Assembly: GCA_022560555.1 (NCBI GenBank)
Contig: JADFSZ010000129.1
Span: 1 to 5,114, forward strand
DNA length: 5,114 bases
Direction of reading: 5' to 3'
Source: PVC group bacterium
GTDB taxonomy: Bacteria; GCA-001730085; JADFSZ01
The translations under genes and the position numbers were made by a program. Under the pieces are notes generated by a model. That model saw only the letters and a list, made by a program, of their open reading frames with translations. It searched no databases and was not told the origin of the DNA. Shown here in pieces: positions 1 to 5,114 of the stretch (its first letter is position 1; every line of letters starts with the position of its first letter).

Positions 1-2
1 AA

Positions 3-572
3 GTTGGGCGTGCTCAAAGTATATCCTTTCGTCTTACAGCCGTTAATCCCTCCAGCAGCAAGACTCAAACGACGGAAATTAAAGGCTACCTCCCGAAAGA
101 AGTGCAACCCGGAGATATTATCGATGATGCCGGCCTGGAAGTTTTTTATGATGAGCAAAAGGGTTTGTACTATGTTTATCGCGGCTCTATACAATTAGCT
201 CCGAAAGAAATCAGATTGTTTGAGATTCAAGTCAATGATATCTGGGTGATTCCTGAGACAGAGTTAACCTCATACAATGAAACGACCGAATCCCTTTTAG
301 AACTTCTCATTGGCACAGATTATTATGCTAAAGCCGATACAATTGCCTACGGTATTTTTGATCGGATAGGGCAGATACGTACCTCTCAAGAGGATGACAC
401 CCAAACGAAAGAAGAACATATCGGCTCATTTCGGGCGAATCAGGTCATTCTGGACAAGATCAAAGAGGATATTGCCCGTCTGGAAAAGATTGTTGTTGTG
501 CCGGCGGTCCTTTGGCTCCGGACATGCTCGCGGATGCGGACATCAAATCAGACTCGCCGACAAAGACGATGA
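3..572 (+). CDS. Hypothetical protein, 5'-truncated at the window edge (beta-rich N-part, charged helical C-part); co-oriented with the ATPase genes and abutting them
   Basis: Frame 3 is open from base 3 with no stop until TGA 570-572. The track's start at 102 (GTG) is only the first in-window start codon. Translation reads VGRAQSISFRLTAVNPSSSKTQTTEIKGYLPKEVQPGDIIDDAGLEVFYDEQKGLYYVYRGSIQLAPKEIRLFEIQVNDIWVIPETE..., followed by a helical-looking stretch ...FRANQVILDKIKEDIARLEKIVV. I recognise no family by eye. The 3' end is uncertain: the last ~25 codons (PAVLWLRTCSRMRTSNQTRRQRR) look less protein-like than the overlapping frame 2. Confidence 0.6.
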   Translation, partial: VGRAQSISFRLTAVNPSSSKTQTTEIKGYLPKEVQPGDIIDDAGLEVFYDEQKGLYYVYRGSIQLAPKEIRLFEIQVNDIWVIPETELTSYNETTESLLELLIGTDYYAKADTIAYGIFDRIGQIRTSQEDDTQTKEEHIGSFRANQVILDKIKEDIARLEKIVVVPAVLWLRTCSRMRTSNQTRRQRR

Positions 573-736
573 CATGGATCGTGATTTTTTCCATTATTGT
601 ATTCACGGCCATTATTGCCGGGGTGCTTTTCTTTACCTGGCAGCACCAAGCCCGCCTTTCTCATGAAGCATTAAGTGAATCACGTAACGAAGCATTTCCT
701 GAAGACGATGATGACTCCAAAAAGGAGGAATCTTAG
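569..736 (+). CDS. Small single-pass membrane protein with an acidic C-terminal tail (55 aa); alternatively the frameshifted C-terminal TM anchor of the upstream protein
   Basis: ATG 569-571 overlaps the upstream stop TGA 570-572 (ATGA coupling motif). Translation is MTWIVIFSIIVFTAIIAGVLFFTWQHQARLSHEALSESRNEAFPEDDDDSKKEES, with one clear hydrophobic helix followed by an acidic tail. There is no convincing SD before 569. Frame 2 is already open from 398 and reads plausibly from ~500 (GGPLAPDMLADADIKSDSPTKT), so TTG 512 or ATG 524 starts, or a frameshift fusion, remain possible. Confidence 0.4.
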   Translation: MTWIVIFSIIVFTAIIAGVLFFTWQHQARLSHEALSESRNEAFPEDDDDSKKEES

Positions 737-749
737 AGCTTGGGCACTT

Positions 750-986
750 ATGATTAAACTCGACGTATCTATCCTGAATCCCGAAAAAGTGGTTTTTAGA
801 GGTGAAGCCAAAAGCGTGATCTGTCCCGGGGAAAATGGTGTGATGGAAATACTGCCTCATCACAAACGCCTCATAGGACGGCTCCTTCGAGGGTGGCTCA
901 TTGTTGACAGTTCGAAAATTAAAATTCGAAAAGGTCTTATCAAAGTGGCTCTCAATAAAGTTGTTATCATTATAGAGGAATATTAG
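750..986 (+). CDS. atpC: F1 epsilon subunit, minimal form (78 aa, beta-sandwich only)
   Basis: MIKLDVSILNPEKVVFRGEAKSVICPGENGVMEILPHHKRLIGRLLRGWLIVDSSKIKIRKGLIKVALNKVVIIIEEY aligns by eye along its full length with the N-terminal domain of E. coli and Bacillus PS3 epsilon (LDVVSAEQQMFSG...GELGIYPGHAPLL...PG / GELGILPGHIPLV). I prefer ATG 750 to the track's GTG 675 because epsilon homology begins at M-x-x-L-x-V. AGGAGG 723-728 lies 21 nt upstream, which is long, and only a weak GGG sits 5 nt upstream. Stop TAG 984-986 lies 1 nt before the next ATG. Confidence 0.8.
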   Translation: MIKLDVSILNPEKVVFRGEAKSVICPGENGVMEILPHHKRLIGRLLRGWLIVDSSKIKIRKGLIKVALNKVVIIIEEY

Positions 987-987
987 G

Positions 988-1227
988 ATGTCGAGAAATA
1001 TAGCGTTAACGCTGATTTTCGGAGCTTGTATCATGGGGCCGTGCATGGTGTTTGCCGCGAGTTCTTTCGCGAGCATTATCGCTTTGGGGCGGAATCCGTC
1101 AGCCGCTCCCAAGGTATTCACGGCACTTGTTTTGGGTTTGGTGTTTGCGCAGACCCTAGCCATTGTCGCGATCTTAGTCGTGTTTCAATTGTATTTGCCG
1201 ACGGAAGCAATTTTGTCGCACACATAA
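988..1227 (+). CDS. atpE: Fo subunit c-like protein, paralog 1 (79 aa), with Gln at the ion-binding carboxylate position
   Basis: Two-helix hairpin with the c-family polar loop GRNPS (compare ARQP in bacteria, ARNPS in mitochondria). Phe at +7 and Gly at +13 after the loop Pro are kept, but position +18 is Gln55 (CAG 1150-1152). SD GAGGA 975-979 lies 8 nt before ATG 988. Helix 1 lacks the GxGxGxG motif and has MGPC instead. Confidence 0.75.
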   Translation: MSRNIALTLIFGACIMGPCMVFAASSFASIIALGRNPSAAPKVFTALVLGLVFAQTLAIVAILVVFQLYLPTEAILSHT

Positions 1228-1261
1228 TTTGCTTGTTCCCGTGGCCGATAAGAGGGAGTTT

Positions 1262-1498
1262 ATGAATCGGAATATGGAGCTTACGCTTATTTTTTTATTT
1301 GTTGTTATGGGGCCGTGTTGTGTCTATGCCGTAAGTTGTTTTACGAGCATTTTGTCCTTAGGACGAAATCCGGACAGGGCTCCAAAAATTTTTATGGCTT
1401 TAGTCATCGGATTAACAGTTGTGCAGATAATAGCTATGGCGGGCGTGCTGATTGCGTATCAGACCTATTTACCGAACGAAACGGCTCTAACTCAATAA
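1262..1498 (+). CDS. atpE: Fo subunit c-like protein, paralog 2 (78 aa), with Gln at the ion-binding carboxylate position
   Basis: MNRNMELTLIFLFVVMGPCCVYAVSCFTSILSLGRNPDRAPKIFMALVIGLTVVQIIAMAGVLIAYQTYLPNETALTQ is collinear without gaps with paralog 1, with about half the residues identical by hand count (41/78). It has the same GRNP loop and the same Gln55 (CAG 1424-1426). I prefer ATG 1262 to the track's TTG 1229 because it matches paralog 1's MSRN/MNRN start and follows SD GAGGGAG 1252-1258. Confidence 0.75.
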   Translation: MNRNMELTLIFLFVVMGPCCVYAVSCFTSILSLGRNPDRAPKIFMALVIGLTVVQIIAMAGVLIAYQTYLPNETALTQ

Positions 1499-1508
1499 TG
1501 GGGTCTCT

Positions 1509-2231
1509 ATGTTAATTGTATCGATGGTTCTTTTTCAAATCTTAATGGTTGTCGGGCTTATAGTGATTTTTCGAAAGATTTTAAATCAAAATGTGTCTTC
1601 GGCTACGCGGCATTTGGAAAGCATGAACGAAGAATATGTTAAAAAAGAGAAGGAGCTGAATTGCCGGCTTGAAGAAATCGATGACGCGTCGAATGAAAAG
1701 ATTCAAAAAGCCACCGAAGAGGGTGAGGAGGAGAGGAAAAAAATATTAGATGAAGCCGAAGGCCAAAAGCAGCACATCATCAATGATGCCCGCAATCAGG
1801 CAAAAATGATTGTGGATCAAGCCGAGAAAACACGCGATCTATTAATTTTAGAAATAGATGATCGTATCACCCAGGAAGGGCTGGGTAAAGCGTGTGAGCT
1901 GATTCAGCATTGTCTTCCCGAAGAATTCAAGAGAGAAATTCATACCCGGTGGGTTAAAGAATTATTGGAAAACGGATTCGAAAACGCGGATCATATGCAG
2001 GTAGATAAAAGTGTGGAAGAAGCCAAGATACGTACAGCATTCACATTAAGTGAAACTGATATGGAAAATATACAAAAGCGAATTTCAGAGTATCTTAAAC
2101 ATGATGTCCGTATCACACAAGAGACGGATTCTAAGCTTGTCGCGGGGATTGTTGTGACGATAGGAAGTTTGGTTTTTGACGGAAGTTTAAATAATCGGGT
2201 TCAGGAGCAAGTGAGTGCACAGTCAAAATAA
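1509..2231 (+). CDS. atpH: Peripheral-stalk fusion protein: b-like N-terminal TM helix and charged coiled coil fused to a delta/OSCP-like C-terminal domain (240 aa)
   Basis: The N-terminus MLIVSMVLFQILMVVGLIVIFRKIL is a single TM helix. It is followed by a long Glu/Lys-rich helix (EEYVKKEKELNCRLEEIDDASNEKIQKATEEGEEERKKILDEAEGQKQHIINDARNQAKMIVDQAEK), as in subunit b. The C-terminus AKIRTAFTLSETDMENIQKRISEYLKHDVRITQETDSKLVAGIVVTIGSLVFDGSLNNRVQEQ matches E. coli delta's C-terminus (...[55 protein letters not shown]). GGGG 1500-1503 lies 5 nt before ATG 1509. Confidence 0.75.
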   Translation: MLIVSMVLFQILMVVGLIVIFRKILNQNVSSATRHLESMNEEYVKKEKELNCRLEEIDDASNEKIQKATEEGEEERKKILDEAEGQKQHIINDARNQAKMIVDQAEKTRDLLILEIDDRITQEGLGKACELIQHCLPEEFKREIHTRWVKELLENGFENADHMQVDKSVEEAKIRTAFTLSETDMENIQKRISEYLKHDVRITQETDSKLVAGIVVTIGSLVFDGSLNNRVQEQVSAQSK

Positions 2232-2242
2232 AGGGGAATACC

Positions 2243-3724
2243 GTGCATGAAGAAAAAGTAATCAACCGTAAATCTCAGGCTCAATTTGATGTCCGCGAGG
2301 TCGGGTACGTCGAATCTATCCGTCAATTTGTCGTCATTGCTAAGGGCTTGCCATTTTGTATGAACGGACAAATTGTTGAATTTGCAAATAAGGTTTTGGG
2401 TCTTGTGATTGGTTTTACTGAACATGAAATCCAGATTCTCGTATTGGGAAGTGCCGCGGATATTCGCGCGGGGGATGAAATTTACAATAAAGGCAAAACC
2501 TTGACTCTCCCGGTCGGCGATGGGTTCGTCGGACGAATTGTGAACGGATTGTGTCAGCCTCAAGACGGATTGGGTCCCATTGAGGCGGATGATCATTTTC
2601 CTGTCTTTCGTGTAGCTCTCGGAGTGATGGAGAGACAGCCCGTGGTCAAAACGTTTGAAACGGGAACTCTGATTCTTGATGCGATCATTCCAACAGCAAA
2701 AGGACAGCGTCAGCTTCTCATTGGGGACCGCTTGACCGGGAAAACGACTGTGGCGATGGATGCCATCCTCAATCAAAAAGGAAAAGATGTTATTTGCATC
2801 TACTGCTGTATCGGTAAACCCTACTCGAGTCTTGTCAAAATCGTAGATTTACTGCAGGAACATGATGCCTTAAAACACACCATCATTGTAACGGGAGTCG
2901 CGTCGTTGTCAACGGGGGAGCAGTATTTGGCTCCTTATACCGCGTGCATGTTGGGGGAGTACTTTATGTTTCAAGGAAAAGATGTGTTTGTCGTTTTTGA
3001 TGATTTGACAAAACACGCGTGGATTTATCGCCAGATTTCCCTTCTTTTAGAGCGTTCGCCCGGACGCGAGGCTTATCCGGGAGATATCTTTTATCTGCAT
3101 TCGCAATTGATGGAAAGAGCCGGGTATTTGAATGAAGAACGGGGTGGGGGATCCATGACTTTTTTCCCCGTTGTGGAAATCTTGCAGGGTGATCTTACGG
3201 GATATATTTCTACCAATATTATCTCCATGACAGACGGGCAATTGTATTTTTCAACGGATCTGATTAAAAAAGGTTTTTTGCCGGCGATTGATTTTGGTCT
3301 GTCGGTGTCCCGTATCGGAAACAAAGCGCAGTGGAGTGCTATGAGAGATGTCAGTAAAATGCTCCGGCTTGAATACATTCAATACAAAGAACTTCTCAAG
3401 ATGACACAGATGCAAGGAGCCTCTGTCACCGAAGACGCCCAAAACAAACTGAGGCGCGGAGAGGCCATCAATGTTCTCATCAACCAATATCGAAACGAGC
3501 CTGTTTCCATAGAAGCCCAGATCGTTTATCTCTACGCGTTGGATAAGGGGTTTCTCGACAGTCTCTCTAAAGAGCAGGTAGGGGTGTTTAAAAAAGATGT
3601 TTGTTCCTTTCTTGAAAAAAAATATCCGAATATTTTTCAAGAGCTTCGGGAAAATCAGGATTTGAATGACGAAATGAAGAAAAAGCTTGAAGCCGGTTTC
3701 AAAGATTATGCGAGTAAAATCTAA
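2243..3724 (+). CDS. atpA: F1 alpha subunit (493 aa)
   Basis: Walker A is GDRLTGKT (canonical GDRQTGKT). [22 protein letters not shown] matches [58 protein letters not shown] matches [36 protein letters not shown], with the Arg-finger Arg retained. GTG start at 2243 follows AAGGGG 2231-2236. Stop TAA 3722-3724. Confidence 0.97.
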   Translation: [493 protein letters not shown]

Positions 3725-3776
3725 GATAGAAGGGATAGGATACGCTACATTGTTTATTAAATTCAGGGAATCAACA

Positions 3777-3846
3777 CCAGATTTTCAGGTCTGCCAATTG
3801 GGGATAACGCCGGATTTGCCATAACCTACGGTTCTGCAAAATCTGG
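3777..3846 (+). promoter_or_regulatory. Long-range inverted repeat (possible RNA stem) inside the alpha-gamma spacer
   Basis: CCAGATTTT (3777-3785) is perfectly complementary to AAAATCTGG (3838-3846). The stem extends by CAG 3786-3788 / CTG 3834-3836 across a 1-nt bulge (C3837) and encloses ~45 nt that contain the palindrome CCAATTGG (3794-3801). Function unknown. Confidence 0.3.
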
Positions 3847-3850
3847 CACG

Positions 3851-3866
3851 GGCTACTTGGGTAGCC
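3851..3866 (+). promoter_or_regulatory. Perfect 6-bp hairpin abutting the gamma Shine-Dalgarno
   Basis: GGCTAC-TTGG-GTAGCC (3851-3866). It is followed by GATT, then GGGGG 3871-3875 (SD), then GTG 3880. No U-tract follows, so it is not an intrinsic terminator. It could be an mRNA processing, stability or translation-control element. Confidence 0.3.
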
Positions 3867-3879
3867 GATTGGGGGTAAA

Positions 3880-4725
3880 GTGAAAACCCTTTCGCAAATC
3901 AAAAAAGATATGGAGTTTAATAAGGATCTGACTGTGTTAATCGAGGCCCTAAAATCTATTGCCATCGGGGAATATTATGCCCTCGAAAAAAAAATAAAAT
4001 TTTATAAAAAATATTTGGCAAGTGTTGAGAGTTTTTTTGAATATATTGATGTGGAGACGATCAATCATCCGTTTGTGAAGCCGCGAACACATAAGCAGGC
4101 TGTGATTGCCATTACGTCGGACGCGGGTTTTTTGGGGGGTGTGAACATGCGCGTGGTTCATGCCGCGCTCCATGAAGCCGAAAATATGCCGACAACACTC
4201 CTTGTCGTCGGAGAGCGTGGAAAAATGTATGTTCCAAGCGGGCTTCATTCTCTTGTGAGTTTCCCCGGGATAAGCGAGGAATCCCGTTTTGAACAGTCAA
4301 TACAAATGAGAAATTATCTTGTCAAGCAAGTCCTTTCAGGCGCTTATGATACCGTCAAGCTTGTGTATCCAAAGCCCGTATCCATGATGGTCCAGCATGT
4401 TGAGGTTGTTCAATTTCTGCCTTTTCGTCCGTCCAATACGAAGCTGGCTCCTCCGGCGGTCATAGCGAATACTATTATGGAATCCCGTCTGGAAGACACT
4501 GTTGAGTATCTTGTGACTTTATGGATGGGAGAGATGCTCTTTGAAATATTTGGATTAAGCCGCTTAGCCGAGTTTTCAGCACGTTATTTTCACCTGGAAG
4601 AGAGTAATGAAAAATTGAATGATGAAAACAAAAAGATTCAGTTACAGTATTTTCGTATCCGTCATGAGCTTATTGACAGATCCATGCGCGAACTATTCGC
4701 GGGAAGGGCTACACGTGGACGTTAG
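3880..4725 (+). CDS. atpG: F1 gamma subunit, divergent (281 aa)
   Basis: The length and position between alpha and beta fit gamma. ITSDAGFLGGVNMRVVH matches canonical VSTDRGLCGGLNINLFK. The C-terminal helix LQYFRIRHELIDRSMRELFAG matches [22 protein letters not shown]. The N-terminal helix SQIKKDMEFNKDLTVLIEALKSIAIGEY resembles [27 protein letters not shown] only loosely. GTG 3880 follows GGGGG 3871-3875. Stop TAG 4723-4725. Confidence 0.85.
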   Translation: MKTLSQIKKDMEFNKDLTVLIEALKSIAIGEYYALEKKIKFYKKYLASVESFFEYIDVETINHPFVKPRTHKQAVIAITSDAGFLGGVNMRVVHAALHEAENMPTTLLVVGERGKMYVPSGLHSLVSFPGISEESRFEQSIQMRNYLVKQVLSGAYDTVKLVYPKPVSMMVQHVEVVQFLPFRPSNTKLAPPAVIANTIMESRLEDTVEYLVTLWMGEMLFEIFGLSRLAEFSARYFHLEESNEKLNDENKKIQLQYFRIRHELIDRSMRELFAGRATRGR

Positions 4726-5114
4726 TAGTGATAAAGCAAAAATAATCGGGAAAGTTGTGGCGGTGCAGGGGCCGGTTGTGGATGTGAAATTCGAGACGCA
4801 ACAAGAAGTCCCGAATGTTTTTGGCCTTATCACTACGTATACCATCGATAAGGAAGAAGTGTTTTTGGAAGTGGCCGAACATTTGCCAGGGAATATCGCG
4901 CGTTGTATTGCTATTCATTCCACGATTAATATTCCACGTTTTGCCAAAGCTTATAATCTCGGGAAACCCATCGAAATTCCTGTAGGGGATGCTATGTATG
5001 GGCGACTTGTGAATGTTTTGGGGCATCCCATTGACAAAGGAGGGGAGATAAAGTCGGATGAGACCATGCCGATTCGAAAAGCTCATATGGGCAGCCTCAT
5101 TAACACAAGTGAGA
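4715..5114 (+). CDS. atpD: F1 beta subunit, N-terminal ~133 codons (3'-truncated by the window edge)
   Basis: This ORF is not in the supplied track because it has no in-window stop. Frame 2 is open from 4619 to 5114. Translation is (M)DVSSDKAKIIGKVVAVQGPVVDVKFETQQEVPNVFGLITTYTIDKEEVFLEVAEHLPGNIARCIAIHSTINIPRFAKAYNLGKPIEIPVGDAMYGRLVNVLGHPIDKGGEIKSDETMPIRKAHMGSL. It matches E. coli beta ([27 protein letters not shown]...[27 protein letters not shown]...[28 protein letters not shown]...IHR). I propose GTG 4715 as the start, preceded by GGGAAGGG 4701-4708 and overlapping the gamma stop by 11 nt. The P-loop lies beyond the window. Confidence 0.9.
   Translation, partial: MDVSSDKAKIIGKVVAVQGPVVDVKFETQQEVPNVFGLITTYTIDKEEVFLEVAEHLPGNIARCIAIHSTINIPRFAKAYNLGKPIEIPVGDAMYGRLVNVLGHPIDKGGEIKSDETMPIRKAHMGSLINTSE

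Follow-up and report, generated by a model that had tools for sequence, protein, structure and literature searches.

Glutamine at the ion-binding position of subunit c points to a probable ion-uncoupled F-type motor in Omnitrophota

Described F-type ATPases and the Omnitrophota operon

A 'symbiotic', non-respiratory F-type ATPase (sF-ATP) was described in all classes of Omnitrophota by Seymour et al. 2023 (Nat Microbiol, PMC10066038), with type-4a pilus genes in most cases no more than 10 kb away. The non-respiratory assignment was based on the phylogeny of the alpha and beta subunits and on synteny, and alpha grouped with Mycoplasma types 2/3. Here we analyzed the F-type ATPase operon on a stretch of DNA of 5,114 nucleotides (nt) from a PVC group bacterium (GCA_022560555.1, contig JADFSZ010000129.1, positions 1-5,114, forward strand; hereafter, the window), in which two tandem subunit c genes, c1 and c2, both have Gln in place of the essential mid-helix-2 Asp/Glu of F-type c subunits. 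The genes are tightly packed on the plus strand in the order 'up' (a conserved gene to which no function could be assigned), epsilon, c1, c2, b/delta, alpha, gamma and the start of beta. The contig is annotated as 'PVC group bacterium', and the operon was assigned to the Omnitrophota, with its homologues being labelled Omnitrophota or PVC. A scan of one genome per GTDB species revealed relatives in 303 species, and the best 80 loci were analyzed with 10-kb flanks (81 loci with flanks, about 1.1 Mb of sequence). We also compared the window with three close assemblies from different samples, L001, L082 and L083, of which L001 is a 7.4-kb contig that is 98% identical to the window and extends the operon past the window end.

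The window cluster is almost certainly the sF-ATP cluster of Seymour et al. (PMC10066038), with which it shares the Omnitrophota origin and, as seen in its relatives and in L001, type IV pilus (T4P)- or type II secretion system (T2SS)-like genes within 10 kb. The main idea developed here is thus not wholly new, because a non-respiratory ATPase was already proposed in that study. The portion of its text that was available is silent on subunit c, the carboxylate, subunit a, the short epsilon, 'up' and the adjacency of a giant open reading frame (ORF). Whereas the sF-ATP alpha is said to join Mycoplasma types 2/3, the alpha analyzed here has hidden Markov model (HMM) scores of 527.7 for atpA, 393.1 for glide_MMOB1660 and 298.4 for MSC_0619_alpha. 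Apparently new relative to the literature consulted are the subunit c evidence, a seemingly ion-blind c-ring that is retained, the repeated loss of the carboxylate, the short epsilon, 'up', the giant-ORF adjacency and the locally missing subunit a, and a targeted literature search found no earlier report of an F-type operon that lacks a and keeps a carboxylate-free c-ring.

The Mycoplasma Type 2/3 clusters, including that for gliding of M. mobile, offer an analogy (PMC3369863, PMC8406192, PMC11864180, PMC12994834), as the Omnitrophota cluster may likewise be F1-derived and devoted to a surface function, and both adjoin genes of large surface or membrane proteins. The 'F1-like X0' of Type 3 is without c, a, b and delta, has a partner with 12 transmembrane (TM) segments and is required for the surface MIB-MIP system, an example of a surface system powered by an F1-like motor (PMC12994834). 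It also includes a signal-peptide protein with extracellular domains and C-terminal TM helices, a topology similar to that of 'up' (PMC12994834). The Mycoplasma clusters differ, however, in comprising seven genes with the 12-TM 'X0' and without c, a, b and delta, whereas the Omnitrophota cluster encodes c and b/delta and no 12-TM protein. The Mycoplasma HMM cut-offs are not reached by alpha (393.1 vs 600 and 298.4 vs 520) or by beta (445.9 vs 850 and 394.4 vs 570).

Homologues of alpha, beta, gamma, the epsilon N-domain, b/delta and c are shared with canonical F1Fo enzymes, and the c fold and its R-N-P loop are conserved. Canonical enzymes have a full epsilon and a separate full delta, whereas the Omnitrophota cluster has the epsilon N-domain and a delta C-terminal domain fused to b; they also have a subunit a and the c carboxylate, whereas here no a is found within 10 kb and the carboxylate is unconserved. 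The gene order (epsilon, c, b/delta, alpha, gamma, beta) is likewise unlike the canonical one. A natural Gln in the same column occurs in one c hairpin of the hybrid ring of Acetobacterium woodii (4BEM), but the other sites of that ring have Glu, it binds Na+ and subunit a is present. No such mix of Gln- and Glu-type c genes in one operon was detected here, as both window c genes have Gln and the other loci have a single c. The N-ATPase (atpDCQRBEFAG; PMC2881411) is a second, laterally mobile F-type operon whose b resembles the b/delta fusion (TIGR03321, weak, 51.3 bits). It has a, AtpQ/AtpR and a full Na+-binding c, whereas the Omnitrophota cluster has a different gene order and no a nearby, and scores against the alternative alpha (506 vs 750.5), beta (487.9 vs 752) and b (51.3 vs 224.7) models fall short of their cut-offs.

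Glutamine in the ion-binding column of subunit c

Few functional residues in bioenergetics are as conserved as the carboxylate that subunit c carries in mid-membrane. In both c1 (an F-type c-subunit hairpin of 79 amino acids (aa); 988-1227, plus strand) and c2 (a divergent c1 paralog of 78 aa from the ATG at 1262; 1262-1498, plus strand), codon 55 is CAG, at 1150-1152 and 1424-1426, respectively. An initial annotation of the window had placed this Gln in the ion-binding column of both paralogs, and phmmer, a family profile and the fold comparison of c1 all confirmed the placement. Pairwise phmmer against PDB chains aligned 'GLVFAQTLAI' of c1 and 'GLTVVQIIAM' of c2 without gaps to 'GIAFTEALAI' (Chloroflexus c, 9itj), and c1 also to chloroplast c and Paracoccus c, with Gln55 matched to the Glu that binds the ion. 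In A. woodii c1 (4bem_J), the second hairpin has its Gln in the same column, in line with the Glu-to-Gln precedent given in the initial annotation. A profile built from 24 family sequences kept the same register (E = 6.3e-7 to the 9itj c). The agreement of the gapless pairwise, profile and fold comparisons rules out a misaligned column.

Membership of the c family was supported by structure as well. The AlphaFold model of c1 (pLDDT 81.9) folds as a hairpin of two helices (2-35 and 40-68), its best 50 PDB fold matches are all F-type c subunits (TM-scores about 0.5-0.7), and the hairpin loop G-R-N-P is found at residues 34-37 of both c1 and c2. The two score 21.5 and 17.6 bits, respectively, against PF00137 (gathering cut-off 24), and most c orthologues bear a precomputed PF00137 match. 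Helix 1 of the family is without the GxGxGxG motif, a strong divergence from canonical c.

The paralogs are 52.6% identical (41/78), slightly more than the earlier estimate of about 50%. All four close assemblies (the window, L001, L082 and L083) have both paralogs with CAG at codon 55, and Gln55 is not a sequencing error, as had been argued before, because the same CAG codons occur in three further assemblies from different samples. Together with Gln in 38 of the 80 species, this also rules out a lesion of the strain. To the earlier list of acidic residues must be added Asp38 of c2, in the loop GRNPDRAP. The c1 of L083 (L083:2202-2441, P0001) has Glu instead of Ala54 (GCG to GAG; 'LVFEQTLAI'), which places a carboxylate on helix 2 one residue before Gln55.

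We profiled the carboxylate column in the wider family. Close database homologues of c1 (n = 97, mostly labelled Omnitrophota) have Glu (n = 51), Gln (n = 45) or Ala (n = 1) at this position, and the 80 GTDB species loci have Glu (n = 38), Gln (n = 38), or Gly, Ala, Ser and Phe (n = 1 each). The site is thus polar (Glu or Gln) in 76 of the 80 species, and no Asp, Lys or Val was detected at it among the species loci. Gln is therefore conserved across only part of the homologous clusters, with 38 of 80 having it, 38 having Glu and four having other residues. The initial annotation had regarded orthologues with Glu as a possible sign of a strain-specific lesion; such orthologues do exist, but a lesion is not implied, given that Gln is as common as Glu. 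Because of this equal frequency across species, the carboxylate is shown to be dispensable, as far as can be judged from sequence comparison.

The site has changed repeatedly. Fitch parsimony on a neighbour-joining tree of the alpha subunit (71 taxa) gave at least 13 changes with Glu at the root; the site codons are GAG, GAA, CAG and CAA, and Glu and Gln are one transversion apart. Along with the Glu/Gln state, only neighbouring helix positions shift, with position 56 being mostly Ala when the site is Glu and more often Ser/Thr when it is Gln. No charged residue in 'up' or b/delta was found to covary with the state, which is also unlinked to whether 'up' is a separate protein or fused to the giant ORF, both states occurring with both forms.

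A variable key residue could also be a mark of decay, in which the Fo part (c1, c2) would be unused, Gln a tolerated lesion and only a soluble F1 at work, as in the Mycoplasma F1-like ATPases that are without a c-ring. The faster gain of non-synonymous changes in c2 than in c1 among the four close assemblies and the frameshifted 'up' of the window are consistent with this explanation. However, each of the 80 species loci has a single, intact c gene at the same position, its start is overlapped by the epsilon ORF (by 3-10 nt) in many of them, and the median pairwise ratio of non-synonymous to synonymous substitution rates (dN/dS) of the c gene is about 0.16, which indicates purifying selection. 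Residues L33-G-R-N-P37, A40, F11, P18, V21, I30 and Q67 are invariant in 81 c sequences, so the loop that faces gamma/epsilon in canonical enzymes is strictly kept, but the 'essential' carboxylate is not. The TM anchor of b/delta is kept as well, and the replacements at site 55 are non-random (Gln in 38 vs four others). We consider it highly improbable that the c genes are relics.

The tandem arrangement pointed out in the initial annotation is real, but peculiar to the window lineage, as c is a single gene in 80 of the 80 other loci. No second c gene or small TM protein was detected in these loci, where the larger gaps between epsilon and c or between c and b/delta hold non-membrane ORFs or nothing. 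For the lineage-specific paralog c2, neither a word-based search nor HMMER run in full over 1.84 billion representatives revealed relatives elsewhere, only its own cluster exceeding 50% identity in the HMMER scan. A 1515-aa match (P0100) was discarded as a repeat-protein artefact.

One family member of 138 aa (P0115) is a fused double c hairpin with Glu at the key column of both units. One metagenome-assembled genome (MAG) has two whole clusters, L022 (JAQURC010000010) and L023 (JAQURC010000009), each spanning from the giant ORF to the T2SS-like genes and both of Gln type. In a few species extra ORFs are located between epsilon, c and b/delta (L054:3281-3544, L050:1304-1738), so the operon, which is otherwise tight, tolerates small mobile insertions. 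One of the inserted ORFs begins with MFYTYVLQS...YTG, which resembles a GIY-YIG-type nuclease motif and makes it a candidate nuclease.

Subunit a, the F1 part and a hydrolysis-driven motor

No subunit a (PF00119) was detected in the window or within 10 kb in any of the 81 loci, and the about 1.1 Mb of these loci and flanks had no suitable ORF with at least four TM segments. The multi-TM ORFs in the flanks are mainly proteins of about 400 aa at the GspF position, and a Pfam scan of selected multi-TM ORFs yielded GspF, an ArsP permease and sensor kinases. A phmmer --max search with E. coli AtpB over the 81 loci had a best E of 0.93, and no membrane ORF in them contains an Arg-Leu-Phe-Gly-Asn-type motif of subunit a. 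With no subunit a encoded nearby, the complex would have neither half-channels nor a stator arginine.

The missing parts could in theory be supplied in trans, if the Gln-type c mixes with a Glu-bearing c and a subunit a from elsewhere to form a hybrid chemiosmotic enzyme with a changed ion/ATP ratio. The Gln in the second hairpin of A. woodii c1 indicates that rings tolerate Gln hairpins, a respiratory F-type ATPase is also encoded in some Omnitrophota orders (Seymour et al., PMC10066038), alpha and beta score as canonical atpA and atpD, and our searches for a and c covered 10-kb flanks rather than whole genomes. Nevertheless, both window c genes have Gln, 38 other species have Gln in their sole local c gene and four have Gly, Ala, Ser or Phe there, and neither an a nor an extra c is present within 10 kb in the 81 loci. 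Co-assembly with a canonical c is doubtful because the c family is highly diverged (no GxGxGxG motif, Pfam scores near or below the cut-off). Moreover, according to a 2026 preprint, 70-99% of Gorgyraeia outside Pluralincolimonadales have V/A-type ATPase subunits, and most complete Omnitrophota genomes are without a complete F1Fo set. A hybrid enzyme of this kind is thus unlikely in our view.

The F1 genes retain the features of their families. Alpha (493 aa; 2243-3724, plus strand) scores 527.7 bits against TIGR00962 (cut-off 484.45) and 226.6 bits against PF00006, and gamma (281 aa; 3880-4725, plus strand) scores 117.1 bits against PF00231 (cut-off 39.9). The 5' part of beta (4715-5114, plus strand) leaves the window and scores 94.5 bits against TIGR01039 on a 133-aa fragment; in L001, where beta is full-length, the score is 563.1 bits (cut-off 462.85), so alpha and beta are above the NCBIfam atpA and atpD cut-offs. 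The Walker A motif GGAGMGKS, GERxREGNE, Walker B and the DELS region of beta are conserved in 60-71 orthologues, as are the P-loop GDRLTGKT and the SVSR arginine finger of alpha.

Both stalks are modified. Epsilon (78 aa; 750-986, plus strand; PF02823, 49.4 bits over residues 4-76) consists of the N-terminal beta-sandwich domain only and is without the entire C-terminal helical (inhibitory) domain, and its orthologue genes are about 230-250 nt long in nearly all 80 relatives. In bacterial enzymes, the epsilon C-terminal domain inhibits ATP hydrolysis. The b/delta-like peripheral-stalk protein (1509-2231, plus strand) has an N-terminal TM helix, a charged coiled coil and a delta/OSCP C-terminal domain (PF00213, 51.5 bits, residues 164-233). 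OSCP is represented by its C-terminal part only (profile positions 97-167), joined to a b-like protein that has weak NCBIfam matches to subunit b and alt_F1F0_F0_B. Its TM helix is poorly conserved in sequence, although the anchor itself is kept.

We consider it likely that the operon encodes a non-chemiosmotic, ATP-hydrolysing F-type motor with an ion-blind c-ring as its membrane rotor. The proposal in the initial annotation that such a ring could not translocate ions canonically, and may be a passive rotor or anchor of an ATP-hydrolysing F1-like motor, is thereby supported and extended from the strain to the family. In this motor, alpha3beta3 would have a working catalytic site, gamma and the short epsilon would form the central stalk, and the b/delta fusion would be the peripheral stalk. 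The c subunits would form a ring whose family-invariant cytoplasmic loop docks to gamma/epsilon. Powered by ATP hydrolysis, gamma and epsilon would rotate relative to the b/delta stalk together with the c-ring, which would survive in the membrane as their rotor or bearing. That the ring assembles and rotates, in which direction catalysis runs and that the output is mechanical are all predictions.

The known chemistry of the c site may explain why Glu and Gln are found interchangeably. Only where c meets subunit a does its carboxylate lose the proton; facing lipid, it is protonated and neutral. Glu-to-Gln and Asp-to-Asn mutants at this site in the F-ATPases studied assemble but do not transport ions. 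In a ring that never meets a subunit a, a mid-membrane Glu would be permanently protonated and neutral; an always neutral Glu would in turn make the amide Gln functionally equivalent, and the two interchange by single G/C transversions (GAR to CAR). The ancestral c1 and the duplicated c2 of the window lineage would then both happen to carry Gln.

Several points weigh against an ion-uncoupled motor. About half of the species keep Glu, and ion binding or even translocation is possible in those members. The replacements are almost only Gln and never Asp, Val or Lys, so the site is still constrained to a Glu-like polar side chain, a constraint that we can explain only by analogy with a protonated Glu. 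The search for subunit a covered 10-kb flanks, and an a or a Glu-bearing c encoded elsewhere may in principle join the complex. The frameshift of 'up' in the window, if real, would mean that the locus is decaying in this strain. Finally, ring assembly, rotation, ATPase activity and the tie to 'up', the giant protein and the secretion system are deduced from gene content and context.

If the motor is ion-uncoupled, the family would be a natural experiment that sets apart what the ring does as a mechanical rotor from what it does as an ion carrier. The c subunits give direct sequence evidence that the 'symbiotic' ATPase of Omnitrophota is non-chemiosmotic. The annotation 'F0F1 ATP synthase' in Omnitrophota MAGs should accordingly not be taken as indicating oxidative or ion-driven ATP synthesis.

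Genes adjoining the operon

The order giant ORF, 'up', epsilon, c, b/delta, alpha, gamma, beta was found in every long locus. In most loci these are followed by genes for a small MshEN protein, a GspE/PilB-like ATPase, GspF, an MA-clan peptidase and a GspG pseudopilin. Downstream of the full-length beta, L001 likewise encodes a small MshEN-domain protein and the start of an ORF homologous to the GspE/PilB-like ATPase of the relatives. That ATPase (L013:14717-17326 and its equivalents) has MshEN at its N-terminus and PilZ at its C-terminus, two domains annotated as binding cyclic di-GMP (c-di-GMP), which points to regulation of the linked secretion or pilus machine by a second messenger. The giant ORF upstream encodes more than 2,700-3,250 aa, leaves the fetched flank (L013:1-8631, L002:2-9541; L082:1-4237) and matches the Kre9_KNH immunoglobulin-like domain. 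Giant genes linked to T2SS-like loci were also reported by West-Roberts et al. 2023, without mention of an ATPase.

The window contains the 3' part of 'up' (3-736, plus strand), which is conserved across relatives. It is read in two frames (3-572 and 512-736) as a result of a 1-bp deletion at 495-515 (near 500) relative to L001 (GTTGT-GCC vs GTTGTCGCC). L001, L082 and L083 encode an intact 'up', and the intact copies suggest that the frameshift is an assembly error rather than the sign of a pseudogene. A full-length homologue (P0117) has 268 aa. The AlphaFold model of 'up' (pLDDT 87.6) shows a signal peptide, a beta-sandwich, a bundle of three long helices and, at the C-terminus, a TM helix; no PDB fold matches it with E below 0.1, and searches gave no NCBIfam match and only a sub-threshold Pfam match. 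An 'up' homologue is located directly upstream of epsilon in 73 loci, as a separate protein of about 270 aa (n = 40) or as the C-terminal domain of the giant ORF (n = 33); about 45% of the species have the fused form. This fusion and the position directly upstream of epsilon suggest that 'up' may link the giant protein to the ATPase.

Two invariant Trp flank the C-terminal TM helix of 'up', and the helix is conserved to a degree unusual for a simple anchor, which suggests specific membrane packing. A helix of this kind, or that of b/delta, might act as a non-homologous stator in place of subunit a, with a neutral-ligand ion or water site in c providing a new coupling chemistry, and the presence of Glu or Gln at the site in 76 of the 80 species would fit such a site. 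The 'up' helix, however, has no Arg, Lys or other charge, the b/delta helix is the poorly conserved one, and one or two single-pass helices cannot make two aqueous half-channels. Gly, Ala, Ser and Phe variants of the site also occur, and Glu-to-Gln and Asp-to-Asn changes here are known to abolish ion transport in the F-ATPases studied. New coupling chemistry is thus very unlikely.

For the ion-uncoupled motor, work would most likely go to the envelope apparatus encoded next to it rather than to an ion gradient. This apparatus would comprise the bitopic 'up', often as the C-terminal domain of a giant surface protein, and the T2SS- or T4P-like system. Candidate partners of the motor are therefore 'up', the giant ORF and the c-di-GMP-regulated GspE-like ATPase, in hosts that are ultra-small and possibly predatory. 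More tentatively, the c-ring might be a transmembrane drive shaft that takes torque from the cytoplasmic F1 through the inner membrane and delivers it to an apparatus in the periplasm or at the surface, with the 'up' domain and/or the adjoining T2SS/T4P-like machine as its target; we regard this as possible, though doubtful. If true, it would be the first F-type rotor with a mechanical output across the membrane instead of ion transport. It would also correspond to the flagellar rotor, with ATP as the drive, and be a c-ring-bearing parallel to the Mycoplasma gliding and MIB-MIP motors.

Rfam, promoter and terminator scans of the window revealed nothing significant. A 176-aa antisense ORF (633-1163, minus strand) overlaps epsilon and c1 and is most likely spurious, as homology and conservation favour the plus-strand genes. 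The 155-bp non-coding spacer between alpha and gamma (3725-3879) has no Rfam match and an RNA fold z-score of only -1.07. It holds a unit of about 70 nt with an imperfect hairpin, which is tandemly duplicated in L001 (L001:3697-4077), beside a run of N.

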